A stretch of 64,000 nucleotides of DNA from a virus. Under the pieces are notes generated by a model that did not search any database, had not been told where the DNA came from, and saw only the letters and a program-made list of their open reading frames with translations. The stretch spans positions 1 to 64,000 of IMG/VR virus record IMGVR_UViG_3300036828_000771; one strand, 5' to 3'. The position numbers and the translations under genes are program-made. Shown here one piece after another: positions 30,413 to 63,666 of the stretch (within the stretch, counting starts at the first letter, position 1; every line of letters begins with the position of its first letter).

Positions 30413-30450
30413 ATGTCCCTAATATAGGGCACCCTATATTAGTTCTCAAG
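30413..30450 (-). promoter_or_regulatory. RpoD-type promoter with 20-bp operator
   Basis: CTTGAG-N17-CTATAT; palindrome ATGTCCCTAATATAGGGCAC at 30413-30432 covers the -10. Confidence 0.75.
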
Positions 30451-30460
30451 GGCTCGTCGC

Positions 30461-30850
30461 TCATGGCGACACTATCCCCAGCGCCATCGCGAAGAACCAT
30501 CCGACCGGCAGGAGCACGATCAGGCTCACCGCGATGAGAGCAAGGCTGCCGGTGCTGGCGGCGGGCGACGGCGGGACCACCACCGCCTTGCCACCAGAAG
30601 CCGCCACGGCGGCCAGAAGCTCGCGGTGCTGTTGGTCGCGCTTGGCGACCTCGGCGTTGGTCTCACCCGAGCACGCCCAGATGAAGGCGATGAACCAGCC
30701 GATCAGAGTCCAGCCGAGGCACAGGTTGACGAAGAACACGCCAGTCGTGCCGTTGGCCTTGCCGCGCACCGTCGCGATGACGGTCGGCAGGAAGTAGCAG
30801 GCCAGCGCGATCAGAATCAGGATCAGGCCGCCCGTTGCGTCGGCGTTCAT
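30461..30850 (-). CDS. Superinfection immunity (T4 Imm-like) membrane protein
   Basis: YFLPTVIA..R...FFVNLCLGWTLIGWFIAFIWA; ATGA-coupled start. Confidence 0.85.
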   Translation of the reverse strand: MNADATGGLILILIALACYFLPTVIATVRGKANGTTGVFFVNLCLGWTLIGWFIAFIWACSGETNAEVAKRDQQHRELLAAVAASGGKAVVVPPSPAASTGSLALIAVSLIVLLPVGWFFAMALGIVSP

Positions 30851-31014
30851 GGCCGGCTCCACGCGCTCAGGTCGGCCGGCAAGTTGAGCGAGTCAAACCC
30901 CGCAGGCATGCTGCCATGGTAGCTGCTGATAGCAGCCGCCAGCGCCACGACAGCGACAGCGACAGCAAGAAAGGTCAGAAACGCGCGCCCTTCTACGCGC
31001 TTGTTGTAAAACAC
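30847..31014 (-). CDS. Small membrane/exported protein
   Basis: GTG after GGAGAG RBS; hydrophobic FLTFLAVAVAVVALAAAI. Confidence 0.45.
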   Translation of the reverse strand: MFYNKRVEGRAFLTFLAVAVAVVALAAAISSYHGSMPAGFDSLNLPADLSAWSRP

Positions 31015-31038
31015 AGGTCTCTCCAGTTGACAGTTAAT

Positions 31039-31584
31039 GGGCGGAATTGCCCTTCGACTCCGTGCGAGCACCGCACGGTTCAGCGCCTCGACCGAGCCTT
31101 GCCCGAAGTCCGGGTGCGGTTCGGTCGCGCGGTCCTGACGTGCCCGAATCTCGGCCATCACTTCGTCGATCTTTTTCACGCAGCGGCCTGCCAAGCGTCG
31201 GCAAGGTTGCTGCTCGATGGCGCGAGAATGTTGTACCAGTCACACTCATAGACACGCTCGCGCTCAGCGTCGGGGTCGACGCCGGGCGGCATGTAGCCCG
31301 GGCGGCCCGTCTCTCTGGCGACCACCAGACAGTTGAGCAGCGGCAGGTCGTTCTGCTGGCAGTATTGCAGGATGCAGCCAAGGATTTCGTCGAGCACGCC
31401 ATGGCTGCGGCGGTGGAACATCAACTCGCCCAGTTGGGCGTAGGTGATGGTCTGTCGGTTCATGCCGTGTCCAATGAGGATTTGCCACGCCTGAACGGCC
31501 CGCACGGGCCGCACGCTGCTCGGATTGAAACGTACACTCATCTCGACACTCCCTTTCTATCGGGCGGAATTGCCCTTCGACTCC
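31039..31584. repeat. 23-bp direct repeat (31039-31061 and 31562-31584)
   Basis: GGGCGGAATTGCCCTTCGACTCC identical twice; related copy at 32942-32955. Confidence 0.9.
31176..31541 (-). CDS. Hypothetical protein, probable winged-helix
   Basis: RQTITYAQLG..LG.I..YC...DLPLL..LVV...TG.PG; RBS AAGGGAG. Confidence 0.6.
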   Translation of the reverse strand: MSVRFNPSSVRPVRAVQAWQILIGHGMNRQTITYAQLGELMFHRRSHGVLDEILGCILQYCQQNDLPLLNCLVVARETGRPGYMPPGVDPDAERERVYECDWYNILAPSSSNLADAWQAAA

Positions 31585-31621
31585 TAAAGCCCGCGCCAGC
31601 TTTTCAGGGCTGGGCGGGCTG
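31576..31621 (-). promoter_or_regulatory. Bulged-hairpin leader element D
   Basis: AGCCCGC-CCAGC-loop-GCTGG-C-GCGGGCT-TT-AGGAGTC. Confidence 0.55.
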
Positions 31622-31644
31622 GTAGGGCGGGGGAACCAACTTGC

Positions 31645-31835: not shown

Positions 31836-32924
31836 TTACTGGGCCAGTTCGAGGAGCTTGCCGCCCTCCTTCTCCAGTTCGACGCGGGCGTCCTGATGGA
31901 CGATGCCGCGCGCCTTGGCCGTCACTGCCGTGGCCGCATCGAACAGGGTCTCAATCGGGCGACCCTCTTCGAGCTTGTGGACCTCCTGAAGCTGGGCAGC
32001 CATGCCGCGCGAGAAGCGCTTGGCCAGCCACTCATCGACGTTGTCGATGCGCTTTTCCTTGGCGGCCTCGATAGCCTTCACGACGTTCGTCGCCGAGGAG
32101 TTCGCGTAGCTCGTCAGAGCCGGGGCCATCTGCTCCAGCCACTTGTCGGGAGCGCTCACCGTGTGGCGGATGGTGATCTGCTTGTACTCGGCAGCACCCC
32201 ACACGATGCGGTTCATGCAGACGTAGTCGAACAGGAAGGTCGCCACGCCGAAGGTCTTGTCGCCGACCTCCGAGTTCCACACGAAGAACCCGCGAGCCAT
32301 CGCGCCGGTCTCGCCGTTGCGGCGATTCGGAATCTCGATGCGGTTCTGCTCGTCGGCGAGGAACACGAACATATCGCGGTCGCCGGCATAGAGCGTGGTG
32401 TTGGACTTGTTGACCGTCACGGCCTTGCCGAACTCGCCCGGCACCTTGAACCGGCCGGTGACGCCATCGCCCACCGCCTGAATCAGGCCGCGCACGATGC
32501 CAGAGTTCCAGATGCGGCCATAGTTCGGGCCGGTGGCGCAGCGCAGGATGTTGCTGCCGTTCTGCTGGAGCAGGACGCCAACGTCTTCCACGTCGCGCTT
32601 GTACTGGAGTCCGTAGTTGATGCAGTCGGCGGCCAGAGGGGCCGGCAACGTGCGGAGGTAGCCGCCCGGCGACTTCGCGAGGCTCGCGAGTTGGCCGAAG
32701 GCGTGGTTGGTGGGAGCGTAGGCGTGCCCGTTGGGGCCGACTACCATGAGCGCCTTGCTGTCGCTCGGGACAGGCTGCAACTCGATCTTGCGGCTCGACA
32801 CCGTCAGGGCGCGAGACTGCTCACGGACCCGGTCGAAATGCTCCTGCATCTCGGGAAGGGACGTAAACCGCTCGTCATCCGGTCGGCTCGACCACTGGTG
32901 GCTGGCTTGCATTAACGTAGACAA
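31836..32924 (-). CDS. DUF932/DUF945-family protein
   Basis: QWSSRPDDERFTSL, YGRIWN, LYAGDRDMFVFLAD, RGFFVWNSEVG, VCMNRIVWG. Confidence 0.8.
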   Translation of the reverse strand: MSTLMQASHQWSSRPDDERFTSLPEMQEHFDRVREQSRALTVSSRKIELQPVPSDSKALMVVGPNGHAYAPTNHAFGQLASLAKSPGGYLRTLPAPLAADCINYGLQYKRDVEDVGVLLQQNGSNILRCATGPNYGRIWNSGIVRGLIQAVGDGVTGRFKVPGEFGKAVTVNKSNTTLYAGDRDMFVFLADEQNRIEIPNRRNGETGAMARGFFVWNSEVGDKTFGVATFLFDYVCMNRIVWGAAEYKQITIRHTVSAPDKWLEQMAPALTSYANSSATNVVKAIEAAKEKRIDNVDEWLAKRFSRGMAAQLQEVHKLEEGRPIETLFDAATAVTAKARGIVHQDARVELEKEGGKLLELAQ

Positions 32925-32961: not shown

Positions 32962-33016
32962 ATGTCCTCTATTTAGGGTGTCCACGTCCTGATTGCAAGC
33001 CCTAATTTTAGGGCCG
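32962..33016 (-). promoter_or_regulatory. RpoD-type promoter flanked by two operators
   Basis: CTTGCA-N17-CTAAAT (32971-32999); palindromes at 32962-32981 and 32997-33016. Confidence 0.7.
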
Positions 33017-34659: not shown

Positions 34660-34702
34660 CTGCCCTAGATGTAGGACATGCAATGTCCTAAATCAAGCCC
34701 TG
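34660..34702 (-). promoter_or_regulatory. RpoD-type promoter with operators
   Basis: CTTGAT-N17-CTACAT (34669-34697); CTGCCCTAGATGTAGGACAT at 34660-34679 and a partial site at 34683. Confidence 0.7.
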
Positions 34703-36494: not shown

Positions 36495-36561
36495 ATGCCC
36501 TAAATCAAGGGCATGTGGATAACCTTTCCTGCCGTTTGCACATGCCCTGCATTTAGGGCAC
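36495..36561. promoter_or_regulatory. Pair of 20-bp palindromic operators
   Basis: ATGCCCTAAATCAAGGGCAT (36495-36514) and ATGCCCTGCATTTAGGGCAC (36542-36561). Confidence 0.75.
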
Positions 36562-37078
36562 GGGCCAGCCCGCGCTCCCGGGCACGTAGCTTGCGCAGCG
36601 CCGTCGCTGCGCGCTTGGCCTTGGTCTCCCAGCGCTTGATGGATGCCCGGGTGGCGTCGAGCTTGGCCGAGCGGGCCTCGACCGGGCTGGGCTTGGGCGG
36701 CGCAGCCTTGACCGGCTTGGGCAGGTGCCAGCCCTTGGCCAGCACATGCTGAATCATCTCCAGTTCGAGGGCGGCGTGCCGGGCGCTGTGCGCCTTGAAC
36801 CACCTCTTGCCGTGCCGCCGCTCGAACACCCAATGCGAGGCGTCGTGCACCATGCGCGGCAGACCGTTGCCTCGGGCGTACTGGGTGTCGGTGCCCTTCG
36901 GCGCAGCCCACGCGCGGTTCACGCGGTGACTCCACCATGGCCCTCGCAGGTGCTTGCCGCCGAATTTCTTCAGCAGCTTGTCGAAGATCGGCTTGGCCTC
37001 GGCGGCGGTGACGGGAGGCAACTTGACGTTGCCCCACGCATCGTTCACGTCGCTGTAGGAGGTGAGCGATTCCATCAC
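36500..37078 (-). CDS. Hypothetical basic protein
   Basis: MVHDASH..H..H motif; RWETKAKRA.TALRKL tail. Confidence 0.6.
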   Translation of the reverse strand: MMESLTSYSDVNDAWGNVKLPPVTAAEAKPIFDKLLKKFGGKHLRGPWWSHRVNRAWAAPKGTDTQYARGNGLPRMVHDASHWVFERRHGKRWFKAHSARHAALELEMIQHVLAKGWHLPKPVKAAPPKPSPVEARSAKLDATRASIKRWETKAKRAATALRKLRARERGLARALNAGHVQTAGKVIHMPLI

Positions 37079-37407
37079 GACACCTTCCTGCCCTTGGCGA
37101 TCAGCAGTCGCCAGTCGGCCATGCTGATCGTGACCTCATGCGTGCCGTCGCGGATGTGCATCTTGGCCGAGCCGTCTTCGGCTTCCGCCGCCCACACGAG
37201 GCGCTTGCCTGAGCCGAGCTTGGCCAGAGCGCTGGCCTTGGTGTTCGTGATGAACACTTCCCACCGCTCGGCATCGGCCCATCGCTCGCCTTCCGGCCGT
37301 GCGGCCTTCGGGAGCTTCTTCCATCTCCGCTCCTTCACCTTCTTCGCTGGCCCGCTGCGGATCAGGAAGGTGGGGATCGTGAGATCGTCGTTCGATTGAA
37401 ATAGCAA
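37075..37407 (-). CDS. Hypothetical protein
   Basis: TTG after GGAG; DLTIPTFLIR. Confidence 0.55.
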   Translation of the reverse strand: MLFQSNDDLTIPTFLIRSGPAKKVKERRWKKLPKAARPEGERWADAERWEVFITNTKASALAKLGSGKRLVWAAEAEDGSAKMHIRDGTHEVTISMADWRLLIAKGRKVS

Positions 37408-37425: not shown

Positions 37426-37500
37426 ATGTCCACATTATAGGGCATGTCAACAACAAAGTCCATCCGCTGCATTTTGTGGTGTGTCCTAATTTAAGGGCAC
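37426..37500 (-). promoter_or_regulatory. Promoter with two operators
   Basis: TGGACT-N17-TATAAT (37434-37462); palindromes at 37426-37445 and 37481-37500. Confidence 0.7.
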
Positions 37501-41319: not shown

Positions 41320-41595
41320 TCAGTGTTTCGTTTCTACCGCTTCGCCAACCTCGACGCCCGCCGCTTTGAACATCTCTTTGTTGCCGGCGATGTCGTCGTC
41401 CTGCAATTCCTTCCACTCGCCCTCAGTATAGGGCAGGGAAGGATGATAGGGCATGCGTCCCGTCAAGGTCATGACGCCCTTCCGCTTCTCGTAGATCAGC
41501 GCCGTGCGCGGACAGCACCACACCCCGCCCTCTTGCAGCGAGTCGAACAGTTTCTCCGCCCATGCGATGCAGGCCGGATTGGTTGGGTAAATCAT
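41320..41595 (-). CDS. Hypothetical protein
   Basis: ATGA-coupled; EGGVW..PR. Confidence 0.55.
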   Translation of the reverse strand: MIYPTNPACIAWAEKLFDSLQEGGVWCCPRTALIYEKRKGVMTLTGRMPYHPSLPYTEGEWKELQDDDIAGNKEMFKAAGVEVGEAVETKH

Positions 41596-42634: not shown

Positions 42635-42940
42635 TCATGCGTTGCCTTCCGCTGGGCTGTCGAGGGCGAGGAACATGGCGCGGTAGCGTGCCACCGCCGC
42701 CTCGTCGCCCTTGACCGTATGATCGAAGAAGTGCCGGCACGCCGCGATCATGCTGGCACGGTCGTCGTCGGTCTCGGAGGTGCAGATGCGCGTGTAGATC
42801 ACGCCCAGCAGGGCATTGATCTCGACATCAGCCTCGGGCTTCTGGTTCCGACAGATGCCGTACACGTCGAGGATCACCATCAGGTGCTCGCCCAGCGCCT
42901 TGACCTCGACCTCGTCAGGGAACGTGACCTCTTTCTTCAC
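42635..42940 (-). CDS. Hypothetical protein
   Basis: GTGA overlap with exonuclease stop. Confidence 0.5.
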   Translation of the reverse strand: MKKEVTFPDEVEVKALGEHLMVILDVYGICRNQKPEADVEINALLGVIYTRICTSETDDDRASMIAACRHFFDHTVKGDEAAVARYRAMFLALDSPAEGNA

Positions 42941-43896
42941 TGCGGCCTCTGCCAAAGGGCGATGCGGTTCAGTGCGTCGAGCCGGCGCTGCTCCTTCAGG
43001 TTCGAGCGCCAGAACGCGGGATCGAGCGGCGCGGCGTCGCTGTCGTAGCCGGGCCATTCGTTCTTGGCCATGCAGACCGACCACATATCGATGCCGACCT
43101 CGACCAGTGTCGAGGCTTCGAGCGCCGCCTGATTGCCCATCCTGACGATGGACAGCCCGTAGGGCGGCTTCTGTTCGAGCACGATCCACATGAACTCGAC
43201 CGTTTGGATGCTCGGCAGCAGTGCCTTCAGGCCGCGCTCGTAGAATCCCGCCTGATAGTCGTAGGCTTGGTCGAAGAATACCGACTGCCAGTCCAGCGGG
43301 TGCGCAGAGCCGGCCGTCGTCTTCAGTTCTGGCACCGTGATGTGAGTGCCGCCCTTGCGCACTTCGTCGTGCAGGTAGTCGAGCCGACTGCGGCACCACA
43401 CGCCGCCGCGATCCTTCCACGCCATGGTGAGTTCGGCCTGTCCGCCGGTGAACAGCTTGTCGAGACCTTCGTTGGCCAGTTGCTCCTTGGCCGCCTTCTC
43501 GATCTCCAGCACGATCTCCATGTCCGGGTTCACGAGCGGGATGAGCCCGGCGTCGCGCGCCTCGTCGCGTTCGTCCTGCGCGTCATGCTTCTTGTAATCA
43601 TCGTAGGGGATCACGGCGATGTTCGCGCCCTCGCCGAGGATCAGCGAGTGAACCGCCGACCCGATGTCCCTCACCCGGTTGGTTTTCTCTTCTGTCTCCA
43701 GAATGTTCGGGTTGAGTCTTGGGTGCCAGTAGCGTGCGTGGCGCGGCGAGCGGTTCACCATCATCTTGCAGATGGTGTTGTTGAGCGACGGCTCGACCAC
43801 CGGGTCCTCCAGATAGCGGGGCTCGGAGATGCCCGGGTAGAAGCCGGGCTTGTCGATGACCTTGGGTGGTTTGGGTGGGCGCTTGGTTCTTGCCAT
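42937..43896 (-). CDS. RecE/exonuclease VIII-like PD-(D/E)XK nuclease
   Basis: IGSAVH..ILG, CRSRLD, ELKTT, YDYQAGFY, EQKPPY, WPGY. Confidence 0.85.
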   Translation of the reverse strand: MARTKRPPKPPKVIDKPGFYPGISEPRYLEDPVVEPSLNNTICKMMVNRSPRHARYWHPRLNPNILETEEKTNRVRDIGSAVHSLILGEGANIAVIPYDDYKKHDAQDERDEARDAGLIPLVNPDMEIVLEIEKAAKEQLANEGLDKLFTGGQAELTMAWKDRGGVWCRSRLDYLHDEVRKGGTHITVPELKTTAGSAHPLDWQSVFFDQAYDYQAGFYERGLKALLPSIQTVEFMWIVLEQKPPYGLSIVRMGNQAALEASTLVEVGIDMWSVCMAKNEWPGYDSDAAPLDPAFWRSNLKEQRRLDALNRIALWQRPQ

Positions 43897-43905
43897 GGTT
43901 CACAT

Positions 43906-44427
43906 TTAGGGCATCTGCCAGTTTCTGTCACTGTGGACAGTTTCCGGCTGCTGGCGTGAGCGCGTGCTCACTTTGGGCCGCCCGAAGTAGCGCCATGGCT
44001 TCTCCGACCTGTCGACGCGAAGCATGAGGCCCAGCATCGCAGCGTTGTCCTGAAAGCTGATCGCCTGCCAACCCAGCACCGGCAGCATTTCGGGGCGGGT
44101 CACGCCTTCAGGACGCATCAAGTGGCGCTCGATCATCTTCATCTTGCTGCCGCGTGTGGTCTTCAGGGGCTCCTCGGGCTCCTCGGGGAGCGGCTCGTCC
44201 TTGCGGCCTTTCAGGTAGCTCTCGATCAACGGCAGGCAATGCCGGCAGAAGTGGCTGACCGTCGTGGTGTCGATCAGTTTGTCGGGCCGGTCGACTTTGG
44301 TGGTCTCGACGCGCAGCCAGCCTCGTGGGAGTCGGACAAATGACTTGTCGTCCGTTAGCTTGATGCCGTCGCTCTCGATGACCTTGCAGCCATCACAGCG
44401 GAAGCGGCCGATAGACTTGAAACTCAT
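43906..44427 (-). CDS. Zn-ribbon plus winged-helix (DUF3489-like) protein
   Basis: CDGC..HFCRHC; SK...I...L.RPEGVT..EM...LGWQ; RBS GGAGG. Confidence 0.5.
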   Translation of the reverse strand: MSFKSIGRFRCDGCKVIESDGIKLTDDKSFVRLPRGWLRVETTKVDRPDKLIDTTTVSHFCRHCLPLIESYLKGRKDEPLPEEPEEPLKTTRGSKMKMIERHLMRPEGVTRPEMLPVLGWQAISFQDNAAMLGLMLRVDRSEKPWRYFGRPKVSTRSRQQPETVHSDRNWQMP

Positions 44428-44529: not shown

Positions 44530-44733
44530 TCATGGGCGCTTCTCGAAATCGAAGACCTTGTTGTTGTCGTCCGTGATCGACACGCGCGGCCGACCGGCCC
44601 GCAACTGCCGGCGCACCTTGCGCCGCACGGAGCGCTTGGCGTTGATCTTCAGGTCGGTCCATGCCCGCTTGACCGATGGGAAATACTCGCCGTTGACGAG
44701 GACTTTGATGCGCGATCTGTCAAAGTCCATCAT
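44530..44733 (-). CDS. Hypothetical protein
   Basis: VLVNGEYFPSVKRA (NUMOD1-like); RBS AAGGA. Confidence 0.5.
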   Translation of the reverse strand: MMDFDRSRIKVLVNGEYFPSVKRAWTDLKINAKRSVRRKVRRQLRAGRPRVSITDDNNKVFDFEKRP

Positions 44734-44892: not shown

Positions 44893-44912
44893 ATGCCCCA
44901 AATATGGGGCAT
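44893..44912. promoter_or_regulatory. 20-bp palindromic operator
   Basis: ATGCCCCAAATATGGGGCAT. Confidence 0.7.
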
Positions 44913-46111: not shown

Positions 46112-46371
46112 TCGCCTGATTCCTCTGTGACGAGGTTGATCGTCTTGACTTCACCGATACCGCGTCGCGCATACTCCAGATCAAGGTAGGCCGCCGAAAT
46201 GATCTGAGCGCTCACCTGCGCCATGACGCGAGCGCGATTCCAGTCTCCGATTCCCGCCCCCAATAAATCCAACTGATGGAACAATGCTTCGCGCAATCCG
46301 TCGCTGGTGCGCCTTACCCGGTTCACGACAACAGACGGCGCAGACGGCGGGGATGATGATGGCTTACGCAT
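46108..46371 (-). CDS. Hypothetical protein, lower GC
   Basis: LREALFHQLD.L..RA...AQII. Confidence 0.5.
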   Translation of the reverse strand: MRKPSSSPPSAPSVVVNRVRRTSDGLREALFHQLDLLGAGIGDWNRARVMAQVSAQIISAAYLDLEYARRGIGEVKTINLVTEESGE

Positions 46372-46831
46372 CGGCGAGAGCCCTGAACAGGCCCGGTCCC
46401 TTCGGCGCGTTCGCGCGCACGTTGTCGATGAAGTGCATCACCTTGGGCTGGCGGCCGGTCTGGCCCAGCTTGCCTCTGGGCTTGACGTGCGCCCCCAGTT
46501 TCTCGATGCCTTTTGGTGCTCTGAGGATGAAGTCGCCGGCTTCCATGCGACCGCCCCGGTCGAAGATCATCAACTCGGTGTAGAGATTGCCCGGCGTGAT
46601 GAAGCGCAACCAGTAGCCGTCCCGGCGCTCGACGTAGGTCTTCGTCTTGTAGACCATCGCCTGCCTGAAATGCTCCTGCCGGCACAGGGCGTTGGCGGCG
46701 GCGCAGGCCGCGTTGTCGCGCCGCTTGGCCGACTTGATATCGGATTCTGTGACGGTGACGATGAGATCGCGCGTGGCATCCTTCAAGGGTGCGTTGGGGT
46801 TGGGCCGCTGAGGTCTCGGTGATCGTGCCAA
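46364..46831 (-). CDS. Hypothetical protein
   Basis: LKDATRDL..CAAANALCR..FDRGG. Confidence 0.55.
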   Translation of the reverse strand: MARSPRPQRPNPNAPLKDATRDLIVTVTESDIKSAKRRDNAACAAANALCRQEHFRQAMVYKTKTYVERRDGYWLRFITPGNLYTELMIFDRGGRMEAGDFILRAPKGIEKLGAHVKPRGKLGQTGRQPKVMHFIDNVRANAPKGPGLFRALADA

Positions 46832-47020
46832 GGGTTCGCCTATGTGATTGTGGAGGAGAAGTTCTGCTAGTTTTTTGCAATACCCTAAATTGTAGCCACG
46901 GGCAACTGGTGCAGTTTCACATCCGTCGTTCGCTTGGGTAATAGGTCCAGCCCTGATCGACGCAGGCGTAGACGAAGGCCAGCAGCATCACGACAAGGCA
47001 CAGGTTGACGAAGAGGGGTT

Positions 47021-48697: not shown

Positions 48698-48889
48698 CTA
48701 GGGCCGCTTGGAACGCACGCCCCTCTTCTTCGCCTGCGGTGGATGAGGGAAGACAATATCGAGGGCAGACACGCTAATGTCATACGCGCGACGGCACGCC
48801 AGCAACCGACGATATCGGCGATGGAAATCGCGGATGAGCACCGCAAGCTCCATCGCCTGTGCGCGGTGCCACTTCGGCTTCGGCCGCAC
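48698..48889 (-). CDS. Hypothetical protein
   Basis: TAGTG coupling to upstream gene. Confidence 0.35.
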   Translation of the reverse strand: MRPKPKWHRAQAMELAVLIRDFHRRYRRLLACRRAYDISVSALDIVFPHPPQAKKRGVRSKRP

Positions 48890-49908
48890 TAGACCGCAAC
48901 GAACTCGGGCGGTGTATTCGGCAGCTTCGGCAGCTTCGGATAATCGGAATCCGGTTCAACCGACTTCCCTAAATCATTCGGCCCGAGCGTGTGCCCGGTC
49001 ATGGACTTGCTTAGCGCCCGTGCGATCATGATGTTGCGGATGTTCTCGTGCAGTCGACCCTCAGCCCTCTGCATGCGCTCGTGCACACGCTTCACCAGCT
49101 TGGCGGCGTTCGAGCGAGCCCGTGTGCCTTCCGTCATCATGCTGTTGGCGAACTCCACGACGCGGCCCCAGTGCGAAGCGCTGACGCTGCCATAGAGGTA
49201 GAAGAATGCCGCCAGCGCACCGGCCGGGAAATTGCGCTGGCCCTTGAGCATGGTTTCCTTGGAGACTGTGCGAGCAAGTTCAATGGACCGTGCGAACAAC
49301 TTGTCCGCCTGATAGCGATCTTCCCAGTAGGCCCGCATCTCCTCGTTCTGGATCACGAGACCACGATTGTGCGGCGTCTCGGACGACAGGATGGTGAGCC
49401 AGCGAATCGCACCGGCAACCGTGCCAGCGTTGGTGACGCCAAGCGCTTCGAGCACGTTGGCGTTGGTCCGCTTGCGGCCCATGTCGAGGAAGCTGAAGGC
49501 GCTGTCCTCGACGCCGAACACGGCGAGCACCCGCAGTTTCTTGCCCGACATCGCCGTTGCAGCCAGCCGTTGGTAGCCGTCGAGCAGCACGCCCGTCTTC
49601 GAGAAGATGATGGTCTGGCCGGTAAGGCCGAACCAATCGTTGCTGATCATCGCCTCAGCATACTGCTTGATCTTGGCCGCCGAGGTCTTGCGATTCAGCC
49701 GCTTGAAGTCGTCGAGGATGTGCTGGGCGAGTTGTGGGGTGACGGTGATGGTTCGAGCGAAGGGCTCGACCTTGCCGTGCCACCCGCCGGCATCGACCAT
49801 GTGCGCCAGCATGGTCTTCTGTTCGTCGATAGTCTGGTTGGTGGGATTGAGATAGAGCTTAGGACGCAGCGCATTTTCGTGCATTGGCACGGTGTTGCCG
49901 TCAGGCAT
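48889..49908 (-). CDS. ParB/Srx-like (DGQHR-type) domain protein
   Basis: VTPQLA..L..NR...YA..M...W.LTGQTI.F...G.LLDGYQRL.A..D.G.KRT; RBS GGAG. Confidence 0.7.
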   Translation of the reverse strand: MPDGNTVPMHENALRPKLYLNPTNQTIDEQKTMLAHMVDAGGWHGKVEPFARTITVTPQLAQHILDDFKRLNRKTSAAKIKQYAEAMISNDWFGLTGQTIIFSKTGVLLDGYQRLAATAMSGKKLRVLAVFGVEDSAFSFLDMGRKRTNANVLEALGVTNAGTVAGAIRWLTILSSETPHNRGLVIQNEEMRAYWEDRYQADKLFARSIELARTVSKETMLKGQRNFPAGALAAFFYLYGSVSASHWGRVVEFANSMMTEGTRARSNAAKLVKRVHERMQRAEGRLHENIRNIMIARALSKSMTGHTLGPNDLGKSVEPDSDYPKLPKLPNTPPEFVAV

Positions 49909-49957
49909 GGGACGTACTCCAAATGCCGCTGACATGCCCAGCGGCGTGGCGGCGTCA

Positions 49958-50030
49958 AATTAGGGCGTCCGCCAAGTTCTGGCAATCAACAAAATAGGGC
50001 GTGCCTAAAGTAGGCGGTGAAGTGCTATAG
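49958..50030. promoter_or_regulatory. Divergent control region
   Basis: - strand ATTGCC-N17-CTAATT; + strand TGCTATAG shortly before the ATG at 50039; TAGGGC half-sites. Confidence 0.5.
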
Positions 50031-52577: not shown

Positions 52578-53408
52578 TCAGCCCGTCGCGACGTACAAGT
52601 GACCGCGCTTGTTCGGGCTCGCCTTGGCGAGCTTGTCCACAATTCCTTTCAGCAGGTTCATCGCCGTCAGCGCGTCCTCGCGGTACACGTCGAGCGCCGA
52701 CTCACGCACACTGGAGAGAAGTTCCGTGGTCAACTTCCTGTCGATCTGCTTCACCAGTACGACCAGACCACCGAGGTCCGCCGACACACCCGATTCGATG
52801 ACCGCCTGCGGTTCGACTTCCTCGGTGATGATGCCGGTACGTGCGGGCGGCGGGCGGCGGGCCGCGATCTTCGCGGCTTCCAGCTTCTCAGCTTGCTCGG
52901 CGAGTTTGGCGCGAGCAGCGGCCTTGTCGGTCGCTTTGATGACGGCTTCGCGTGCCTCCTTGACGGCCTTCTTCTGCCGTTCGAGTTCGCGCTGAGTGCG
53001 CTCACGTTCGGCCTCGCGCTCCTTCTCTTCGACCCGGCGCTGGGCTGCGCGGACAGAGAGGATGTAAGGACCACCGATTTTCTTGCCCCTCGCGCCCTTC
53101 CTGATGGCGTCGAGCATGTCAGGCGTGCCTGCTACCCGGTGTGCATAGAAGGACAGGTCGGGATGACGCCGCGACTTTGGAAAGTCGTGGGCTGTTTGGC
53201 GGATGAAGCCTAGGGCGCGAGGATCGTAGTCCTCATAACCATGCAGTTCGAGGTAGGCGGCAGCAGCCGTCAGCTTCTCATAGCTGCCGTCATTCATATT
53301 CTGTTCGCTTGGCTTGCCGACTTCGGCCAGCAGTGCATCACCGATGGCCCACTTGGACTGTTGCTCCTTCTTCACCGCAGCGAGAAGCAGCGGATACTCT
53401 TTCTTCAT
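52578..53408 (-). CDS. LmbU-like DNA-binding protein with coiled coil
   Basis: WAIGDAL..Y...A..FPKSRR.PDLSFYAH..A; RBS AAGGAG. Confidence 0.55.
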   Translation of the reverse strand: MKKEYPLLLAAVKKEQQSKWAIGDALLAEVGKPSEQNMNDGSYEKLTAAAAYLELHGYEDYDPRALGFIRQTAHDFPKSRRHPDLSFYAHRVAGTPDMLDAIRKGARGKKIGGPYILSVRAAQRRVEEKEREAERERTQRELERQKKAVKEAREAVIKATDKAAARAKLAEQAEKLEAAKIAARRPPPARTGIITEEVEPQAVIESGVSADLGGLVVLVKQIDRKLTTELLSSVRESALDVYREDALTAMNLLKGIVDKLAKASPNKRGHLYVATG

Positions 53409-53562: not shown

Positions 53563-53667
53563 CTAACGATTGCCAGTTTTTTGCAGGATTGGCCTTGTGC
53601 CGGTCAGACGACCAGCCTACATGGAGGCGGCCCTATTTTTGGGGCATAACACTTATGGAGACCACCG

Positions 53668-54762
53668 TTGTCTGAACTTCAGGATACCTACGCCGCCGAA
53701 TTGCGGCACTCTGTGCAGCAGAAAAACCGCTGGCACAGAATCGTCTTGGCCACCTGCTCAGTCGTGCAGGGCACCGCCGTCTACTTCGGCCTCGGCGGTC
53801 TGATGACCGACACCGGATTCGCCGGCACCACCATTCCCATCGTCGTCGGGCTCGGCACCGCCATCGTGCTCTACATGACATGGGACATCTTTTTCACCAA
53901 TTTCCCGCTGCTCCACTCGCCAGTGCGTCAGGTTATGGCCGCCGCCTTCGCCATCGTCATGGGGCTGGCAACGGTCGGTATGTCGTCGTGGTTCATCGCC
54001 GCCGCCATCGGCGGGGATCAGGCCATCGTCGCCCACCAGCAGGACTACGTGAAGGAAGCGACGCGCCAGTTCGAGACCGCGCTGCACAATTCCAAGCACG
54101 AGGATGCGGTGCAGACCAAGGCGTTGGAGATCAGCGCCTACTGGCGAGCCAAGGCCGAGGGCGAGGAGAAGTTCGGCTCCAGCAAGACCAAACCGGGTGC
54201 CGGTCCCGATGCGCTGCTGCTGACCAAGGTTGCAGCGAACGCTCAGGCGTTTGCCGCTCACGTTCAGGCGAAGCGCGACGAAGCCGACGCCTTGTACGCT
54301 CAGGGCAGTACGTTGATCGCCGACATGGGCAACATCACCGAGCCACACAAGTTCATCGCCGAAGCCGCCAAGCTCAAGGCGCTGCTGGTCAAGCTCGATG
54401 CCACCACGGCGGCACCTGATGCGATGAATCTCGGTATCGTCATCCCCGAGAGCAGGAGCGATGATCACTACTCCATCGAGAAGCAGACCACCGACCTTCG
54501 CAAGGTCGCCAAGGAAGTCATCGGTGAGCACGAGAAGATCGTATTCGACGCCTTCGTGCCGATGTCACCCGCCATCGCCGTCATCCGCCACGCTGGCGCG
54601 GCCCCCGGCGGCTGGATCGTCGGCGTCGTGCTCGACCTCGTACCCATGATCCTGCTGCTCGCCATGATGATGCTGCACGGCGAGGCGCGCGAGCCGTTCG
54701 TTCGGCGCACGCCCTTTGCCCCGTCAGCCGACGTGGTGCCGATGCGCCGGCCGGCGGAGTAG
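53668..54762 (+). CDS. Multi-TM protein with long soluble coiled region
   Basis: Three N-terminal TMs, EE..G....G.GP motif, C-terminal TM; TTG after GGAG. Confidence 0.65.
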   Translation: MSELQDTYAAELRHSVQQKNRWHRIVLATCSVVQGTAVYFGLGGLMTDTGFAGTTIPIVVGLGTAIVLYMTWDIFFTNFPLLHSPVRQVMAAAFAIVMGLATVGMSSWFIAAAIGGDQAIVAHQQDYVKEATRQFETALHNSKHEDAVQTKALEISAYWRAKAEGEEKFGSSKTKPGAGPDALLLTKVAANAQAFAAHVQAKRDEADALYAQGSTLIADMGNITEPHKFIAEAAKLKALLVKLDATTAAPDAMNLGIVIPESRSDDHYSIEKQTTDLRKVAKEVIGEHEKIVFDAFVPMSPAIAVIRHAGAAPGGWIVGVVLDLVPMILLLAMMMLHGEAREPFVRRTPFAPSADVVPMRRPAE

Positions 54763-56024: not shown

Positions 56025-57176
56025 GTGCAGTACCATCCGCTTGCCAACATCTTCCCGCTGATCGACGGCGAAGCCTTCGACGCCCTGAAGGCCGACATCA
56101 AAGCGAAGGGCCTGCGCGAGCCCATCGCTCTCTACCAGAAGCAGATACTGGACGGCCGGAATCGTTTCCGCGCCTGCAAGGCCGTTCGCGTGCGCCCGAA
56201 GTTCGAGACCTATCGGGGCAAGGACCCGCTCGGCTACGTCATCAGCCTGAACGTCAAGCGCCGGCACCTCGACGAATCCCAGCGCGCCATGGCCGGCGCG
56301 CGCGTCGCCACGCTGCCATGGGGTGTCCGCAAGGATCGGCAACAGGGACCAATTGGTCCCTCTATGACCATGCCCGAAGCGGCGAAGATGATGAACGTCG
56401 GCACGATGTCGCTGAAGCGCGCCCGGCTGGTGCTGGACAAGGGCGACAAGGACATCATCGCCGCTGTCGAAGCTGGCGACCTCGCCGTCGATGCTGCTGC
56501 CGAAGCCATCAAGCTGGAGATCGAGGAGCGCCGCGAGATCGCCAAGCTGGCCCGCCTGAAGTCGGGACAGGGCCGCAAGCTCGTGCGCAAGGTCATCAAG
56601 CGTAGCAAGCGCCGCAAGGTCGAGGAGGCGCTCGCCGAGCAGATCGCCGCGCTGCCCGACAAGAAGTACGGCGTCATCCTCGCCGACCCGGAATGGAAGT
56701 TCGAGACGTGGTCGGACGATGGGCAGAACAAGAACGCCGCCCTCCACTATGCCGTGAGCGACCTCTCCGACATCAAGGCGCGCGACGTGCCCTCAATTGC
56801 GGCCAAGGACTGCGTACTGTTCCTGTGGGCAACCGTGCCCATGCTGCCGCAGGCACTGGAGGTCATGGCAGCGTGGGACTTCGAGTACAAGACCCACTTC
56901 GCGTGGGTGAAGGACAAGACTGGCACCGGCTACTGGAACAAGAACCAACACGAGCTTCTCCTGCTCGGCACCAAGGGCAACATCCCGTCGCCAGCCGATG
57001 GCACCCAATGGTCGACCGTCATCCATGCACCACGCGCCCGACACAGCGAGAAGCCCGAGAAGGCCCTCGAACTGATCGAGGCTTACTTCCCCAACCTGCC
57101 CAAGATCGAACTCAACCGGCGCGGCCCCGCTCGACCCGGCTGGGATGCTTGGGGAGCGGAGGCCGAGCATGCCTGA
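56025..57176 (+). CDS. ParB-N fused MT-A70 adenine methyltransferase
   Basis: HPLA..FP..LKADI..GL.EPI..ILDGRNR; ILADPEW, LFLWAT, W.K, HELLL.G.KG, HSEKP. Confidence 0.85.
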   Translation: MQYHPLANIFPLIDGEAFDALKADIKAKGLREPIALYQKQILDGRNRFRACKAVRVRPKFETYRGKDPLGYVISLNVKRRHLDESQRAMAGARVATLPWGVRKDRQQGPIGPSMTMPEAAKMMNVGTMSLKRARLVLDKGDKDIIAAVEAGDLAVDAAAEAIKLEIEERREIAKLARLKSGQGRKLVRKVIKRSKRRKVEEALAEQIAALPDKKYGVILADPEWKFETWSDDGQNKNAALHYAVSDLSDIKARDVPSIAAKDCVLFLWATVPMLPQALEVMAAWDFEYKTHFAWVKDKTGTGYWNKNQHELLLLGTKGNIPSPADGTQWSTVIHAPRARHSEKPEKALELIEAYFPNLPKIELNRRGPARPGWDAWGAEAEHA

Positions 57177-59780: not shown

Positions 59781-59987
59781 ATGACCCGCCTCGACCAGTA
59801 CGACACCCTCCTCGATCTCCTCGTCCAAGCCGTCCGCACCCTCCATGCCCCGGTCGACGATGGCGAACCCTCGCCCATGATCGAGCACTACCGCCACCAC
59901 ATCGGTCTCCAGCTTCAACTCACCGAGCGACTCGTCCACGACTACTTCGACATGCTTGACGTGACCAAAGCCGATGCCCCACATTAA
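59781..59987 (+). CDS. Hypothetical protein
   Basis: RBS GAAAGGA. Confidence 0.5.
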   Translation: MTRLDQYDTLLDLLVQAVRTLHAPVDDGEPSPMIEHYRHHIGLQLQLTERLVHDYFDMLDVTKADAPH

Positions 59988-59993
59988 GGGCAT
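59974..59993. promoter_or_regulatory. 20-bp palindromic operator
   Basis: ATGCCCCACATTAAGGGCAT. Confidence 0.65.
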
Positions 59994-60250
59994 CTTGAAA
60001 GTCGTCGGCTGGCTCTGTGCCATCGCCTTTGCCCTGTGGGGATTCGCCATGCTCGACAGCCAGACCGCCTGCCAGTTGGCCTGCCAATGAACAGCGAAGC
60101 CCTGCGCGGCAGCACCAAGGTCGACGCTGGCGGACACATGCCCCACTTCGGCGACACCGAAAGGTTCGATGAACCAATGCTCGCCGGCCTGCTGTTCTCC
60201 GCCATCGCCCTCATCGTCATCGCCCTCATCGCCCTGCGGAGAAAACACCG

Positions 60251-60415
60251 ATGAGCAAAATCGTCTACCAAGTCACCATCGAAACCAAAGGCAACGAGCC
60301 CGAGCCCGATGACGAACTCGCCGGCACTCTCGAATTTGTAATCCTCGAAGCCTACGCATCCGGCGATCCCATCACCGTCAAAGTCAAAGTCCTCGAACGC
60401 ACCGACACGCCATGA
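60251..60415 (+). CDS. Hypothetical protein (54 aa)
   Basis: GGAG RBS; MSKIVYQVTIE; ATGA-coupled. Confidence 0.5.
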   Translation: MSKIVYQVTIETKGNEPEPDDELAGTLEFVILEAYASGDPITVKVKVLERTDTP

Positions 60416-60675: not shown

Positions 60676-60798
60676 CAGGCACCCCGATGTTGTGGCTGGA
60701 ATCCGCCCTGTCGCAAACTGTGGAACTGTCGGGGAGGCTCCAATGAGGGGTTCGTAGCACAAAGCGCACATTGCACTGTCCGGCAGGCGTGTACGGAG

Positions 60799-60818
60799 AT
60801 GTCCTAATTTAAGGGCAG
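60799..60818. promoter_or_regulatory. 20-bp operator upstream of NusG-like gene
   Basis: ATGTCCTAATTTAAGGGCAG. Confidence 0.65.
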
Positions 60819-60849: not shown

Positions 60850-61386
60850 ATGTTCGCGTGGCATGTCGCTACCACAAGACCATTCTCCGAACTCATCGCA
60901 GAGAGACACCTCGAACAGCAACGCTTCCAAGCGTTCAACCCCAAGTGCCTCGATATGCGAATCGTCCGGGGTCGCCGTGTCACCGTCGAAAAGCCCTACA
61001 TCCCCGGTTATATCTTCATCAATTTCGACGACACCGCCGAAAACTGGCAGTCCATCAACTACACGCGCGGCATCATCTCCCTCATCTACGCCTCGCCCGA
61101 GCATCCCGCCGTCGTCAAACCCGACGCCATGCAAATCCTCATCGACCGATGCTCCGGTGGCCAGTACATCACCGAGCACGAGATCGACCAGCACATCGCC
61201 AAGCTCGTCCCCATCGCCGCTACCGTCCGCATCACCAGCGGCCCGTTCGACGGCCTCCACGGCATCGTCAAGTGGTCCCACCACCACAGAGTCGCCGTCC
61301 TCATGCGCTTCCTCGGCGTCGTCCGCGAAATTGACATCTCCGCCAAGGCTGTAGAGGTTATCTCCCCTCTGCCACCACGATCCTAA
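60850..61386 (+). CDS. NusG/RfaH-family transcription antiterminator
   Basis: W.V..T, F.P, PYIPGYIFI.F, W..IN.TRGI..L; KOW VRITSGPFDGLHG. Confidence 0.85.
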   Translation: MFAWHVATTRPFSELIAERHLEQQRFQAFNPKCLDMRIVRGRRVTVEKPYIPGYIFINFDDTAENWQSINYTRGIISLIYASPEHPAVVKPDAMQILIDRCSGGQYITEHEIDQHIAKLVPIAATVRITSGPFDGLHGIVKWSHHHRVAVLMRFLGVVREIDISAKAVEVISPLPPRS

Positions 61387-61405
61387 ATGTAGTCGCGAGT
61401 AGATC

Positions 61406-61870
61406 ATGGCTCAGACCAGCGTTGTCCCGCTGCCCAAGCCTCGACCCGGTCCACCGAAAGGCGTCCGCTACGGCGGCAGGCAGAAAGGCACACCGAACAA
61501 GCGCACACCCGAGATGGTGCTGCTCGCGCGGCAGTACGGACCAGAGGTGCTCGCCAAGTTCATCAACCTGCTGCGCAAAAGCGACGACGAGGACATTGTC
61601 CTAAGAGCAGGGCAGGAGATTCTCAACCGAGGCTTCGGCCGACCTCCAACCGCTGTTGCTTTGACCGGCCCACAAGGCGAGCCGCTCGACTTCACGAGGC
61701 TCGATGATGGACAACTCCAACGGCTTCTCGCCCACCTCGAACAGTTTGTCCTTGGAACGGGCGAGGAGAGTCATCCCATACTTGAAGGCCGAGCTACAGA
61801 AGCGCGAACGATTGGCGAGGGAACGGCAGGACCTCGCGAACCGACTGGAGGAGATTCGCGAGAGGTGTGA
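61406..61870 (+). CDS. Terminase small subunit
   Basis: GGRQKGTPNKRT..LAR..EILNRGFGRP..LTG..G.P. Confidence 0.75.
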   Translation: MAQTSVVPLPKPRPGPPKGVRYGGRQKGTPNKRTPEMVLLARQYGPEVLAKFINLLRKSDDEDIVLRAGQEILNRGFGRPPTAVALTGPQGEPLDFTRLDDGQLQRLLAHLEQFVLGTGEESHPILEGRATEARTIGEGTAGPREPTGGDSREV

Positions 61871-63341
61871 GAACTTCGTCGGCTTCATCAAGGAAGCGTG
61901 GAACAAGCTCGAACCGACCACCAACTACAAGCCTTCGTTCCACCACGACGCCATCGGCGATCACCTGCACGCCGTCAATCTCGGCCAGATACAGCGCCTC
62001 GTCATCAACCAGCCACCCGGCACGATGAAGTCGCTCACCGTCTCCGTGCTGTTGCAGGCATGGGAATGGGGACCGCGCAAAGCACCCGGCTTACGCTACC
62101 TCACTACCTCGTATCGCGAAGACTGGGCGCGGCGAGACTCGCGCAAGAGCCGCGATCTCATCCAGAGCGAATGGTATCGCACGCTCTACCCAGAGATCGT
62201 GCTGATCCGCGACGGCGAGACCGACTTCGAGAACACCTTCCTCGGCACCCGCAAAGCGGTGCCCTTCAAGTCCCTCACCGCCGGGCGCGGCAATCGTGTC
62301 GTGGTCGACGATCCTCACTCCACCGAACAGGCTGAGTCGGATGCTGACCGCGAAGTAGCGACTCGTGTCTTTCGTGAATCGGTGACTAGTCGACTCAACG
62401 ATCCCGAAAAGGACTGCATCATCATCTGCATGCACCGACTGCATCCAGACGATGTGTGCGGGGTCATCGAACGGCTCGGCCTGCCCTACACCAAGCTCGT
62501 GCTGCCCATGGAGTACAGCCGCAGCCTCGAAGTGCGCACGCCATGGTTCAAGGACCCGCGCACCAAGGAGAACGAGCTTCTCTGCCCCAACCGCATCAAC
62601 CGCGAGACCGTCGAGCAGAACAAGATCGAACTCGGCGACCACGCCTACGCCACCCAGTACCAGCAGCAGGCCAAGGCCCGCGAGGGCAGTTTCTTCTTCA
62701 ACCCCGAGCACTTCCTCGTCGAGGTCACGCGCGAGGACGGCTCGAAGTTCTTCGCGCCGGCAGCAACGCCCACGATCTGCGATTCGGTGTTCGCCGTGAT
62801 CGACACCGCGAGCAAGGTCGGCAAGGCGCGCGACGGCACAGGCTGCGGCTGGTACGCCTACACCAAGTATCCCGAGGAGCAACTGCGGCTCTTGGACTGG
62901 GACCTCATCCAGATCGAGGCGGCGGTGCTGGAGCACTGGCTGCCCGGCGTGCTGGAGCGCTGCGAGGAACTGGCCGCGCTCACCCACGCGCGCTACGGCC
63001 ACACCGGCGCGTGGATCGAGGACAAGGACTCGGGCATCGTGCTGTTGCAGCAGGCAGCCAATCGCGACCTGCTCGCTCAGCCGATTGAGACCAAGCTCAC
63101 CGGCATGGGCAAGGATGCCCGGGCGCTGTACTGCTCGGGCGATATCTACAAGGGTAAATTCAAAGTGTGTCAGGAGGCTTACGACAAGACGACCAGCTAT
63201 CATGGTCGCACGCGCAATCACTTCTGGTGGCAGGCCACCAACTTCCGCATCGGCCACGGCACGCCGACCGACGAAGACGAAATGTTCGACGTTTTGTGCT
63301 ATGGAGCCGCCATTGCATTCGGGAACCCAGATCAACTCTGA
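61704..63341 (+). CDS. Terminase large subunit
   Basis: RLVINQPPGTMKS, VVDDP, MHRLH.DD, YQQ, nuclease IDTASK, IEDKDSG, DEMFD; exact start uncertain. Confidence 0.9.
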   Translation: MMDNSNGFSPTSNSLSLERARRVIPYLKAELQKRERLARERQDLANRLEEIRERCENFVGFIKEAWNKLEPTTNYKPSFHHDAIGDHLHAVNLGQIQRLVINQPPGTMKSLTVSVLLQAWEWGPRKAPGLRYLTTSYREDWARRDSRKSRDLIQSEWYRTLYPEIVLIRDGETDFENTFLGTRKAVPFKSLTAGRGNRVVVDDPHSTEQAESDADREVATRVFRESVTSRLNDPEKDCIIICMHRLHPDDVCGVIERLGLPYTKLVLPMEYSRSLEVRTPWFKDPRTKENELLCPNRINRETVEQNKIELGDHAYATQYQQQAKAREGSFFFNPEHFLVEVTREDGSKFFAPAATPTICDSVFAVIDTASKVGKARDGTGCGWYAYTKYPEEQLRLLDWDLIQIEAAVLEHWLPGVLERCEELAALTHARYGHTGAWIEDKDSGIVLLQQAANRDLLAQPIETKLTGMGKDARALYCSGDIYKGKFKVCQEAYDKTTSYHGRTRNHFWWQATNFRIGHGTPTDEDEMFDVLCYGAAIAFGNPDQL

Positions 63342-63373
63342 TCTGCCGACTGCCGGGCGGGGCGAATCATTCC

Positions 63374-63481
63374 ATGGACTACCGGGACGTGCTGGCGGCG
63401 ATTGCCATCGTCGTGGTCTTGGTTATGCTCATCGTGTCGGTGAAGTTGATCTTCGAGGATGATGGGAACGGGAAGACATGA
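63374..63481 (+). CDS. Small single-TM peptide
   Basis: MDYRDVLAAIAIVVVLVMLIVSVKLIFEDDGNGKT. Confidence 0.45.
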   Translation: MDYRDVLAAIAIVVVLVMLIVSVKLIFEDDGNGKT

Positions 63482-63666
63482 ACCCAGCCAACGAGCGCGG
63501 CACGGTCGAGCAGGTGATGGCCTTTGCGAATAGGCTGCGTCCGCCGCAGGCTGGTGTCCATGTCCTAAATTGCTGGCATGATGGCGGTGATCCGCACGAC
63601 CTCGCCTACATGCTCGACGGCCTGATGTATCATCAATGGATTGAGCGGCATGGATTACGACAGTGA
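63478..63666 (+). CDS. Hypothetical protein
   Basis: ATGA-coupled; contains a degenerate operator at 63560-63579. Confidence 0.4.
   Translation: MNPANERGTVEQVMAFANRLRPPQAGVHVLNCWHDGGDPHDLAYMLDGLMYHQWIERHGLRQ

Follow-up and report, generated by a model that had tools for sequence, protein, structure and literature searches.

The 64,000-nucleotide window analysed here (positions 1 to 64,000 of the IMG/VR virus record IMGVR_UViG_3300036828_000771) carries many copies of a 20-bp palindrome with the consensus ATG[C/T]CCT-N6-AGG[G/A]CAT. This repeat is real and non-random. It is probably the operator of a dimeric phage repressor, the small helix-turn-helix (HTH) protein P0010, which would shut off the early promoters by feedback in a lytic setting. 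The case is carried by the enrichment of the palindrome, its conservation in related phages, its geometry relative to promoters, its co-occurrence with the HTH family of P0010 and the co-variation of its half-sites with the helices of that family. From these observations we infer binding and repression by P0010, their timing, and a lytic rather than a lysogenic setting.

The palindrome and its position over promoters

The exact pattern ATGYCCY-N6-RGGRCAY gives eight strand hits, which correspond to five distinct sites (30413, 36495, 36542, 44893 and 59974), against 0.01 expected. When up to two mismatches are allowed, 38 strand hits are found against 8.75 expected, and 38 was reached by no shuffle. 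A symmetric weight matrix applied to the complete 77,589-bp genome, of which the window is the first part, finds 19 sites above 16 bits, against 0.05 in shuffles. As the matrix was trained on this very genome, the untrained count of the exact pattern is the cleaner statistic. The first-pass annotation had proposed a genome-wide network of such operators, and the enrichment over a shuffled genome is borne out both by the matrix and by the mismatch count. The commonest palindrome with 5-mer arms in the genome is GCCCT-N6-AGGGC. The total count of sites is 19-26, and the repeat number can be put at some 20-25 or 20-30.

All eleven sites previously listed as close matches were found at exactly the coordinates given, with scores of 18.9-28.1 bits. 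The twelve listed as degenerate or half sites are a mixed group: seven are real (8169, 28212, 34683, 43895, 46880, 49949 and 63560; 10.5-21.7 bits against a genome-wide 99.9th percentile of 4.5), another three (49983, 51799 and 53543; about 5 bits) amount to half-sites only, and the remaining two (48658 and 61378) are unsupported. Ten of the 19 strong sites are non-coding, though non-coding DNA makes up 9.7% of the genome (p = 3e-6), and four further strong sites touch gene ends. The distances between paired sites (22, 23, 35, 47 and 55 bp) show no helical phasing. The earlier remark that the structural operon is free of full sites is only loosely true, since 8169 and 17828 lie in the structural region and two strong sites, 69113 and 76257, fall in head genes past the end of the window.

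Gene calls based on G+C content at third codon positions (GC3) divide the genome into three transcription blocks. The structural block runs rightward over 1-25 kb, the early block leftward from 49.9 down to 25.4 kb, and a second rightward block from 50.0 kb via a NusG-like gene into the terminase and head genes, wrapping to the structural block. Read in the direction of local transcription, many sites present a -10 hexamer (TATAAT, TATATT, TCTAAT) as their AT-rich core, with TTGNNN 17 bp upstream. A match of at least 4/6 to TTGACA, placed 16-18 bp upstream of the central hexamer and co-oriented with the local genes, is present at 9/19 strong sites; in the opposite orientation it is present at 1/19, and at random positions the figure is 8.8%. 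The top two sigma-70 predictions across 26-46 kb (37462-37434 and 30449-30421, scoring 10/12 each) both have a -10 that centres on a palindrome. The overlap with promoter -10 elements and the pairing of sites, both noted in the first reading of the sequence, are thus upheld by promoter geometry and site positions. So is the presence of a site, 60799, ahead of the NusG/RfaH-like gene at 60850-61386 on the plus strand (Pfam NusG, E 2.7e-14), which heads the rightward late operon and is a proposed controlled target. Homologues of this gene bear the source names antitermination factor NusG or antiterminator RfaH.

The pairing of the arms was compared between strands, and the counts of Watson-Crick pairs, G-U pairs and mismatches are essentially equal on sense and antisense. 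Watson-Crick pairs are lacking at about 20% of arm positions, and the variants at arm position 4 are uncompensated (T4/G17 in seven sites, C/G in eight, T/A in none). No T-runs were seen after the palindrome arms, and a terminator scan gave hits no more numerous than in shuffles, none of them at palindromes. Because of the strand-equal pairing counts, the uncompensated arms, the lack of T-runs and a transcript start that would fall inside the palindrome, the sites are read as double-stranded DNA sites for a symmetric protein.

The P0010 family and conservation of the network

No close relative of this phage was found among the GenBank phages searched. Syntenic relatives were reached through homologues of the NusG-like protein: G001 (79 kb, syntenic) and G003/G004, a single phage split over two contigs. 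Both align to this genome in many segments at about 65-81% nucleotide identity, the range for G001 being roughly 66-81%, and the early regions are highly mosaic. In G001, 24 sites are found against three for a reversed control pattern, and 33 sites score above 13 bits. The commonest palindrome of that genome is also GCCCT-N6-AGGGC, with 16 exact copies, and its -35 bias is weaker than here, with 5/24 sites co-oriented against 1/24 opposite. The motif also occurs in a 17-kb fragment (G002) and in the small contigs L001 and L002. In five relatives (G001, G002, L001, L002 and, weakly, G003) a site lies 30-45 bp before the NusG-like start within diverged flanks. Five orthologous positions keep their sites in G001, namely those at the NusG-like gene, the 8187 gene, the PDDEXK nuclease gene, the 37075 cassette and P0010, and the element at the start of P0010 (28212) is identical at 17/20 positions to that at the start of its G001 orthologue. 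Some sites are found in a single lineage only. The network of G003 is faint, with nine core matches against two or three for controls; this fits the altered helix, DPRTVRSW, of its P0010 homologue, an explanation that is post hoc. Two contigs with more distant NusG-like proteins (L003 and L004, 44-47% identical) contain neither the motif nor another repeated palindrome in 20 kb.

The gene of P0010 (27878-28213, minus strand) encodes 111 amino acids, an HTH followed by a long C-terminal helix, and its product is the candidate binder of the palindrome. Homologues are present in G001 and G003, and the family is single-copy in all three phages. An AF2 model from a 30-sequence alignment has a predicted local distance difference test (pLDDT) value of 93.6 and helices at 7-29, 33-41, 45-53 and 60-110, where 33-41 and 45-53 form the HTH and 60-110 is the long helix of about 50 residues. 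Prediction with two copies passed the homodimer test, with a score of 0.65 against 0.00 for the best control. The same mark was reached by 20/30 proteins solved as pairs of one chain and by 1/23 solved as single chains. The homodimer runs showed a contact agreement of at least 93%, a partner pLDDT of at least 72 and an interface that is symmetric along the long helix. This modelling supports pairing of P0010 as a dimer.

The rows ranking best when the model was searched with Foldseek, all weak (E >= 0.7), are XRE regulators that include Aca10 (7xi5), Aca2 (7vjo) and Aca7 (9lx1), and then P22 c2 and controller proteins of restriction-modification systems. The hits of family members to YdaS, Aca2_YdiL and HTH_3 stay below threshold, except that one member (L085) passes HTH_3, with 24.4 bits against 23. 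For Aca2_YdiL, whose cut-off is 23.8 bits, no family member scores above 19.7, and P0010 gives no hit to that model at all. The PHROGs 12690 and 3626 carry no annotated function, and a sequence search of the PDB with the family profile returned noise only.

Relatives of P0010 were sought with a three-sequence alignment of the protein and its G001 and G003 homologues, and 58 viral loci from otherwise unrelated contigs were found to encode them. At most of these loci there is one strong copy of the 20-bp palindrome about 170-940 bp upstream of the HTH gene. A TTGACA-like hexamer, often a perfect TTGACA, lies exactly 17 bp before the central hexamer at 18/33 loci when co-oriented, against 1/33 in the opposite orientation. 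The layout of a locus is -35, palindrome, short leader, variable small gene and HTH gene, and the small gene often overlaps the HTH start by 4 bp. These cargo genes are hypervariable, as 26 proteins fall in 23 clusters, and none of the proteins matches a Pfam family or a known anti-CRISPR (Acr). Five family-bearing contigs of 42-64 kb have one genuine site each. As a separate observation, a GC-rich string of similar sequence (GCGCAGGGCAATCAGG or GGATGGGGAT) recurs in the leader behind the operator at six unrelated loci (L060, L061, L082, L089, L094 and L095). This string may be a conserved element of the 5' untranslated region (UTR), by analogy with the RNA motifs of Aca1 and Aca2 (PMC13551039).

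The half-sites change together with the recognition helix of the family. At 24 distinct loci the helix reads [S/A/T]DRTxRRW and the half-sites are TGTCC...GGACA; three loci with SIRTMQRW have TGGCG...CGTCA, and two with N[LV]RTxQRW have TGTCG...CGACA. The helices NDRTLRRW (L085) and NLRT[S/V]RRW (this phage and G001) go with TGCCC...GGGCA, and seven loci with xPRTVRRW have no canonical palindrome. Where the helix has Gln rather than Arg at position 6, the half-site has G rather than C at its own position 6 (5/5 loci against 0/24; Fisher p of about 8e-6, uncorrected for phylogeny). Such co-variation is the pattern expected if the P0010 family reads the palindrome directly, and because the half-sites change with the family's recognition helix a host factor was excluded as the main binder.

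Several other candidates were tried as the binder and rejected. Two ParB-like genes had been named in the first-pass annotation, but no match to ParB_N (PF02195) at E <= 0.001 exists anywhere in the complete genome, and the gene at 48889-49935 matches only a PHROG of unknown function. That gene was dropped as a candidate, as it has no Pfam family and no homologue in G001, which has 24 sites. Homologues of the genes at 52578 and 53668 were likewise not found in G001, a weak negative for these two, which fall at G001 contig ends; subtraction against G001 is unreliable for genes at 51.9-58.3 kb for the same reason. Phyletic subtraction with G003/G004 was dropped as well, since G003 keeps a weak network and offers no clean negative. 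Pfam and PHROG scans of the genes common to this phage and G001 revealed no DNA-binding family. The cassette 37075-37407 / 36500-37078 was suspected because sites flank it in three phages. Its proteins are without DNA-binding features, and promoters and operators are the better reading of the sites on either side of it.

The predicted circuit and its alternatives

The unit of the proposed circuit would be a sigma-70-type promoter whose -10 is the centre of the palindrome and whose -35 lies 17 bp upstream of that hexamer. With the -10 at the palindrome centre, a bound dimer would therefore cover it and block RNA polymerase. In this lineage the promoter-operator unit appears to have multiplied from one to about 20-30 copies, and it would now stand at roughly ten early promoters (49949, 44893, 43895, 37426, 34660, 32997, 32962, 30413, 59974 and 8169). 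Early transcription would make P0010 by way of the 30413 operon, which runs through a 420-amino-acid gene and a NADAR gene into P0010. As the dimer builds up, it would damp most of the early promoters of both arms and with them its own supply, and the site conserved ahead of the NusG-like gene would delay the start of the late operon or set its timing. Where a copy has no -35, it may be an auxiliary or cooperative site, or a roadblock. Autoregulation is pointed to by a weak operator over the start of P0010 and by the position of the gene downstream of the 30413 operator-promoter. The earlier proposal that one regulator controls many early promoters together with the late switch stands insofar as a palindromic operator overlaps many sigma-70-type early promoters and precedes the NusG-like gene, as judged from geometry, conservation and the linked HTH family.

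Several points weigh against this reading. All support for the predicted binding and repression by P0010 is computational. P0010 passes no Pfam or NCBIfam threshold, its fold search returned nothing at E <= 0.001 with all E values at or above 0.7, and the co-variation of helix and half-site takes no account of shared ancestry. P0010's own operator is weak, while other phages place the operator upstream of the cargo gene, and G003 has a P0010 homologue yet a weak network only. About half of the strong sites have no recognisable -35 (36495, 36542, 37481, 53628, 60799, 63560, 69113 and 76257); several of these are the second member of a pair, 22-55 bp away, and several sites lie inside genes. Sites of these two kinds are not explained by simple occlusion of the -10. 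A purely lytic programme does not readily accommodate an early repressor that also sits before the late operon; such a placing would suit an immunity repressor better.

This last point leads to the alternative in which the operators and the binder are the same, but P0010 is the repressor that maintains a lysogenic, plasmid-like or carrier state, like P1 C1 or the stoperator repressors of Cluster A phages. Early and late operons would then be silenced and elongation blocked at intragenic sites. The sites before the first gene of the late operon and within structural and other genes are the best argument for it. One contig with the HTH family (G006) is classed as a provirus, and the number of sites is like that of the numerous stoperators across Cluster A genomes (PMC9283540). 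We nevertheless regard an immunity function as unlikely. The complete genome has no domain match to an integrase or a serine recombinase, and none at E <= 0.001 to a ParA-type ATPase (PF13614) or ParB_N. Two different probes, run against about 185,000 species genomes, brought up no convincing prophage relatives, which is absence of evidence only. P0010 lies inside an early operon, co-directional with lytic genes and behind an operator-controlled promoter, rather than being separately transcribed, and the usual context of its family is an autoregulated cargo operon with one promoter. Feedback in a lytic cycle is preferred because of the lack of integrase, recombinase and partition genes, the lack of convincing prophage relatives and the place of the gene in the early operon.

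The remaining alternatives give the palindrome another reader or another role. It is improbable that the operators are read by a different protein, whether a regulator of the host or one of the phage such as the Cro-like P0011 (50039-50278). The gene of P0011, a short HTH protein, comes first in the rightward operon; the protein hits YdaS weakly (E 0.012), and G001 encodes a partial homologue of it. Several small uncharacterised proteins are common to this phage and G001. The divergent region adjoining P0011 has weak or half sites only, however, and no relatives of P0011 were found among viral contigs, while the palindrome accompanies the P0010 family in unrelated phages and its half-sites shift with that family's helix. 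A role as RNA hairpins (terminators, processing sites, or translational operators that hide a start codon) is very improbable. The 7-bp arms could pair, three sites put a start codon in an arm, and binding to RNA motifs of 5' UTRs is reported for Aca2 and Aca1 as well (PMC13551039). The arm statistics and the lack of a T-run given above nevertheless speak against hairpins, and with a central -10 the promoter's own transcript would start inside the palindrome, without the 5' arm. Hardly any weight is left for parS-like centromeres in a ParB-type partition of a plasmid-prophage, an alternative raised in the first-pass annotation. Chromosomal parS is palindromic, and N15 has dispersed centromere sites that overlap promoters. 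The partition reading nonetheless fails here for want of a ParB_N or ParA-type protein, the gene at 48889-49935 having no homologue in the motif-bearing G001; the sites are dispersed, and the motif is tied to promoters and to the HTH family instead.

Individual sites and known systems

Two weak operators, 28212-28231 (13.5 bits) and 28234-28253 (with a perfect GCCCT-N6-AGGGC core), lie directly upstream of P0010 and overlap its start; the site at 28212 has a -10-like centre and no clear -35. The promoter and operator at 30413-30449 (minus strand) consist of a -35, TTGAGA, at 30449-30444, a spacer of 17 bp and a -10, TATATT, at 30426-30421, which centres the palindrome 30413-30432. This promoter, scored 10/12 in the independent promoter scan, heads the operon of 29149-30411, the NADAR gene and P0010. 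The NADAR gene adjoins P0010 upstream and is co-directional with it (28278-28919, minus strand; Pfam E 1.8e-22), and it also has an NCBIfam hit to a NADAR family anti-phage protein, below the cut-off of that model. Because phage NADAR enzymes are reported to reverse the ADP-ribosylation of DNA by DarT (PMC11257639, PMC11543638), it is a candidate anti-defence gene. Nearby, the gene at 30461-30862 (minus strand) matches the superinfection immunity protein family PF14373 (E 1e-15), of the T4 Imm type.

Further along the leftward early block, the paired operators 32962-32981 and 32997-33016 (minus strand; region to 33033) are 35 bp apart, have the co-oriented -35s TTGCAA and GTGAAA, and lie upstream of the gene 31836-32924. 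The operator 34660-34679 (minus strand, 23.3 bits) has TTGATT 17 bp upstream of its centre and a weak partner at 34683-34702, and is upstream of the gene 34012-346xx. The best-scoring site, 36495-36514 (28.1 bits), is paired with 36542-36561 at the 3' end of the gene 36500-37078, where neither has a -35; this position is kept in G001 (62273/62307) and G003 (27679). Upstream of the cassette 37075-37407 / 36500-37078 lies the operator-promoter 37426-37445 (minus strand; TGGACT-17-TATAAT), with an auxiliary operator at 37481-37500. This promoter scored 10/12 in the promoter scan and is conserved in G001 and G003.

Both proteins of the cassette have features of their own. The 110-amino-acid product of 37075-37407 (minus strand) and its homologues at L036:2852-3181 (minus strand) and L039:6789-7097 (plus strand) start with D-D-L-x-I-P-x-F-L-x-R, which closely resembles the conserved peptide at the C terminus of FtsZ, by which FtsZ docks onto FtsA, ZipA and MinC. 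With this mimicry of the FtsZ tail, the phage protein may disturb cell division. The 192-amino-acid product of 36500-37078 (minus strand) has a conserved, metal-site-like GLPRMVHDxSHW...H...H..HAALE followed by a basic C-terminal coiled coil, and gave no family match.

The rest of the early block contains an intragenic site at 41417-41436 (16.8 bits; gene 41320-41595) and the operator 43895-43914 (minus strand, 16.6 bits), with GTGACA 17 bp upstream of its centre. The outer arm of the latter is the ATG of the PDDEXK nuclease gene 42937-43896, and G001 has an orthologous site at 68813. A perfect operator, 44893-44912 (minus strand; TTGATC-17-CATATT), is upstream of the gene 44530-44733, and a degenerate one, 46880-46899 (15.7 bits), lies 49 bp upstream of the gene 46364-46831. 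The weak site 49949-49968 (minus strand, 10.5 bits; TTGCCA-17-TAATTT) belongs to the divergent control region and lies 14 bp upstream of the gene 48889-49935.

On the rightward arm, the site 53628-53647 (18.5 bits) lies 21 bp upstream of the gene 53668-54762 and has no -35, and the site 56787-56806 (17.8 bits) is within the MT-A70 methylase gene 56025-57176. The perfect operator 59974-59993 (plus strand; TTGACG-18-CACATT) is upstream of the gene 60036-60254. The strong operator 60799-60818 (25.6 bits), without a recognisable -35, lies 32 bp upstream of the NusG-like gene. A strong Shine-Dalgarno, GGGGAGGC, followed by an ATG and a stop after 1-4 codons, was noticed at 60730-60757, about 100 bp before that gene. 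The element recurs at the same place in G001, G002 and L002 and is kept in four relatives despite diverged flanks; it could be a start-stop or mini open reading frame leader ahead of the late operon. Beyond it are a weak site at 61596-61615 (14.4 bits), 89 bp upstream of the 545-amino-acid gene 61704-63341, which is probably the large terminase, and the site 63560-63579 (21.7 bits), 62 bp upstream of the gene at 63641.

In the structural region, the operator-promoter 8169-8188 (plus strand; TTGGCG-18-TCTAAT), for which G001 has an orthologous site at 29338, supplies with its outer arm the ATG of the gene 8187-8765, and an intragenic site at 17828-17847 (15.1 bits) lies in the structural gene 17248-18327. 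At 8187, 28213 and 43896 the ATG of the gene is formed by the outer operator arm (...GGGCAT then G), 7 nt after a -10-like hexamer and without a well-placed Shine-Dalgarno. Leaderless mRNAs are therefore predicted at these three starts. A start codon in the operator arm is also seen in G001, at 29338 and at several other sites.

The source record has a G+C content of 63%. Its direct terminal repeat of 218 bp with one mismatch (window 1-218 against genome 77372-77589) and a CheckV completeness of 100% identify it as a complete phage genome, even though its listing gives it as linear, with no end repeats.

Among known systems, the Cro proteins of lambda, P22 and 434 and the C proteins of restriction-modification systems are small HTH dimers of the XRE type that turn down early transcription from palindromic operators over promoters, as P0010 is predicted to do. 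Those systems use one or two clustered control regions, whereas here the divergent region is weak and strong sites stand at many internal promoters. P1 C1 has more than ten dispersed operators, many on promoters that include that of the late-gene activator lpa; these are asymmetric 17-mers, and P1 is temperate. The repressor of phiC31, the immunity repressor of a temperate phage, recognises conserved inverted-repeat (palindromic) sites. The likeness to both lies in one repressor with scattered operators, many of them over promoters, and for phiC31 also in the palindromic form of the sites. P1 C1 and the phiC31 repressor differ in being immunity repressors of temperate phages, and as far as tested they are unrelated to the P0010 family.

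Stoperators, which are sites of 13-14 bp and show an orientation bias, were the analogy drawn in the first-pass annotation. What holds of it is the number and spread of the sites, as many copies of the site of one repressor are distributed genome-wide, intergenic and intragenic (19-26 here; 24-33 in G001). The rest of the analogy does not hold: stoperators are asymmetric sites bound by a monomeric two-domain immunity repressor in temperate Cluster A mycobacteriophages (PMC9283540, PMC6550527), while the sites described here are 20-bp palindromes with a predicted dimer as binder, in a genome where no lysogeny module was found.

Anti-CRISPR-associated (Aca) proteins are small dimeric HTH proteins encoded last in their operon, and inverted repeats in the promoter serve negative feedback (PMC6765145, PMC9410906, PMC9410881, PMC13551039). 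The P0010 family resembles them as a small HTH, a predicted dimer, placed last behind fast-evolving small cargo with an inverted repeat in the operon promoter. The fold-search rows of P0010 include Aca10, Aca2 and Aca7, and the NADAR gene upstream of it is of a putative anti-defence type. In contrast to acr-aca operons, no cargo gene is a known Acr and the family passes the threshold of no Aca model, and for these reasons P0010 was called Aca-like in this work and not an Aca. A recent survey predicts that the reach of an Aca protein extends to about three neighbouring operons at most (PMC13551039). The 20-30 sites of this apparently virulent phage, spread genome-wide over replication, recombination and late-switch genes among others, go far beyond that reach.

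If P0010 binds the palindrome, a single-operon autorepressor of the Aca type would have been promoted to a global regulator of early genes, linking anti-defence control to the temporal programme. The arrangement of TTGACA, 17 bp and palindrome would then be a sequence handle for new candidate anti-defence genes in uncultured high-GC phages, and the correspondence of Arg/Gln to C/G would give a small HTH scaffold a rule of recognition that is open to direct test, and from which orthogonal repressor-operator pairs might be derived. A broader view can be offered only tentatively: a widespread Aca-like HTH autorepressor family may mark hypervariable anti-defence cargo loci in high-GC phages via a readable helix-to-operator code, its 37-bp cassette having become in this phage a portable repeat that puts the NusG-like late switch and almost all of the early programme under one feedback repressor, and perhaps also a junction for the exchange of early modules between phages. 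By analogy, an Aca-type autorepressor with a multiplied promoter-operator unit appears a closer model for this network than the stoperators.

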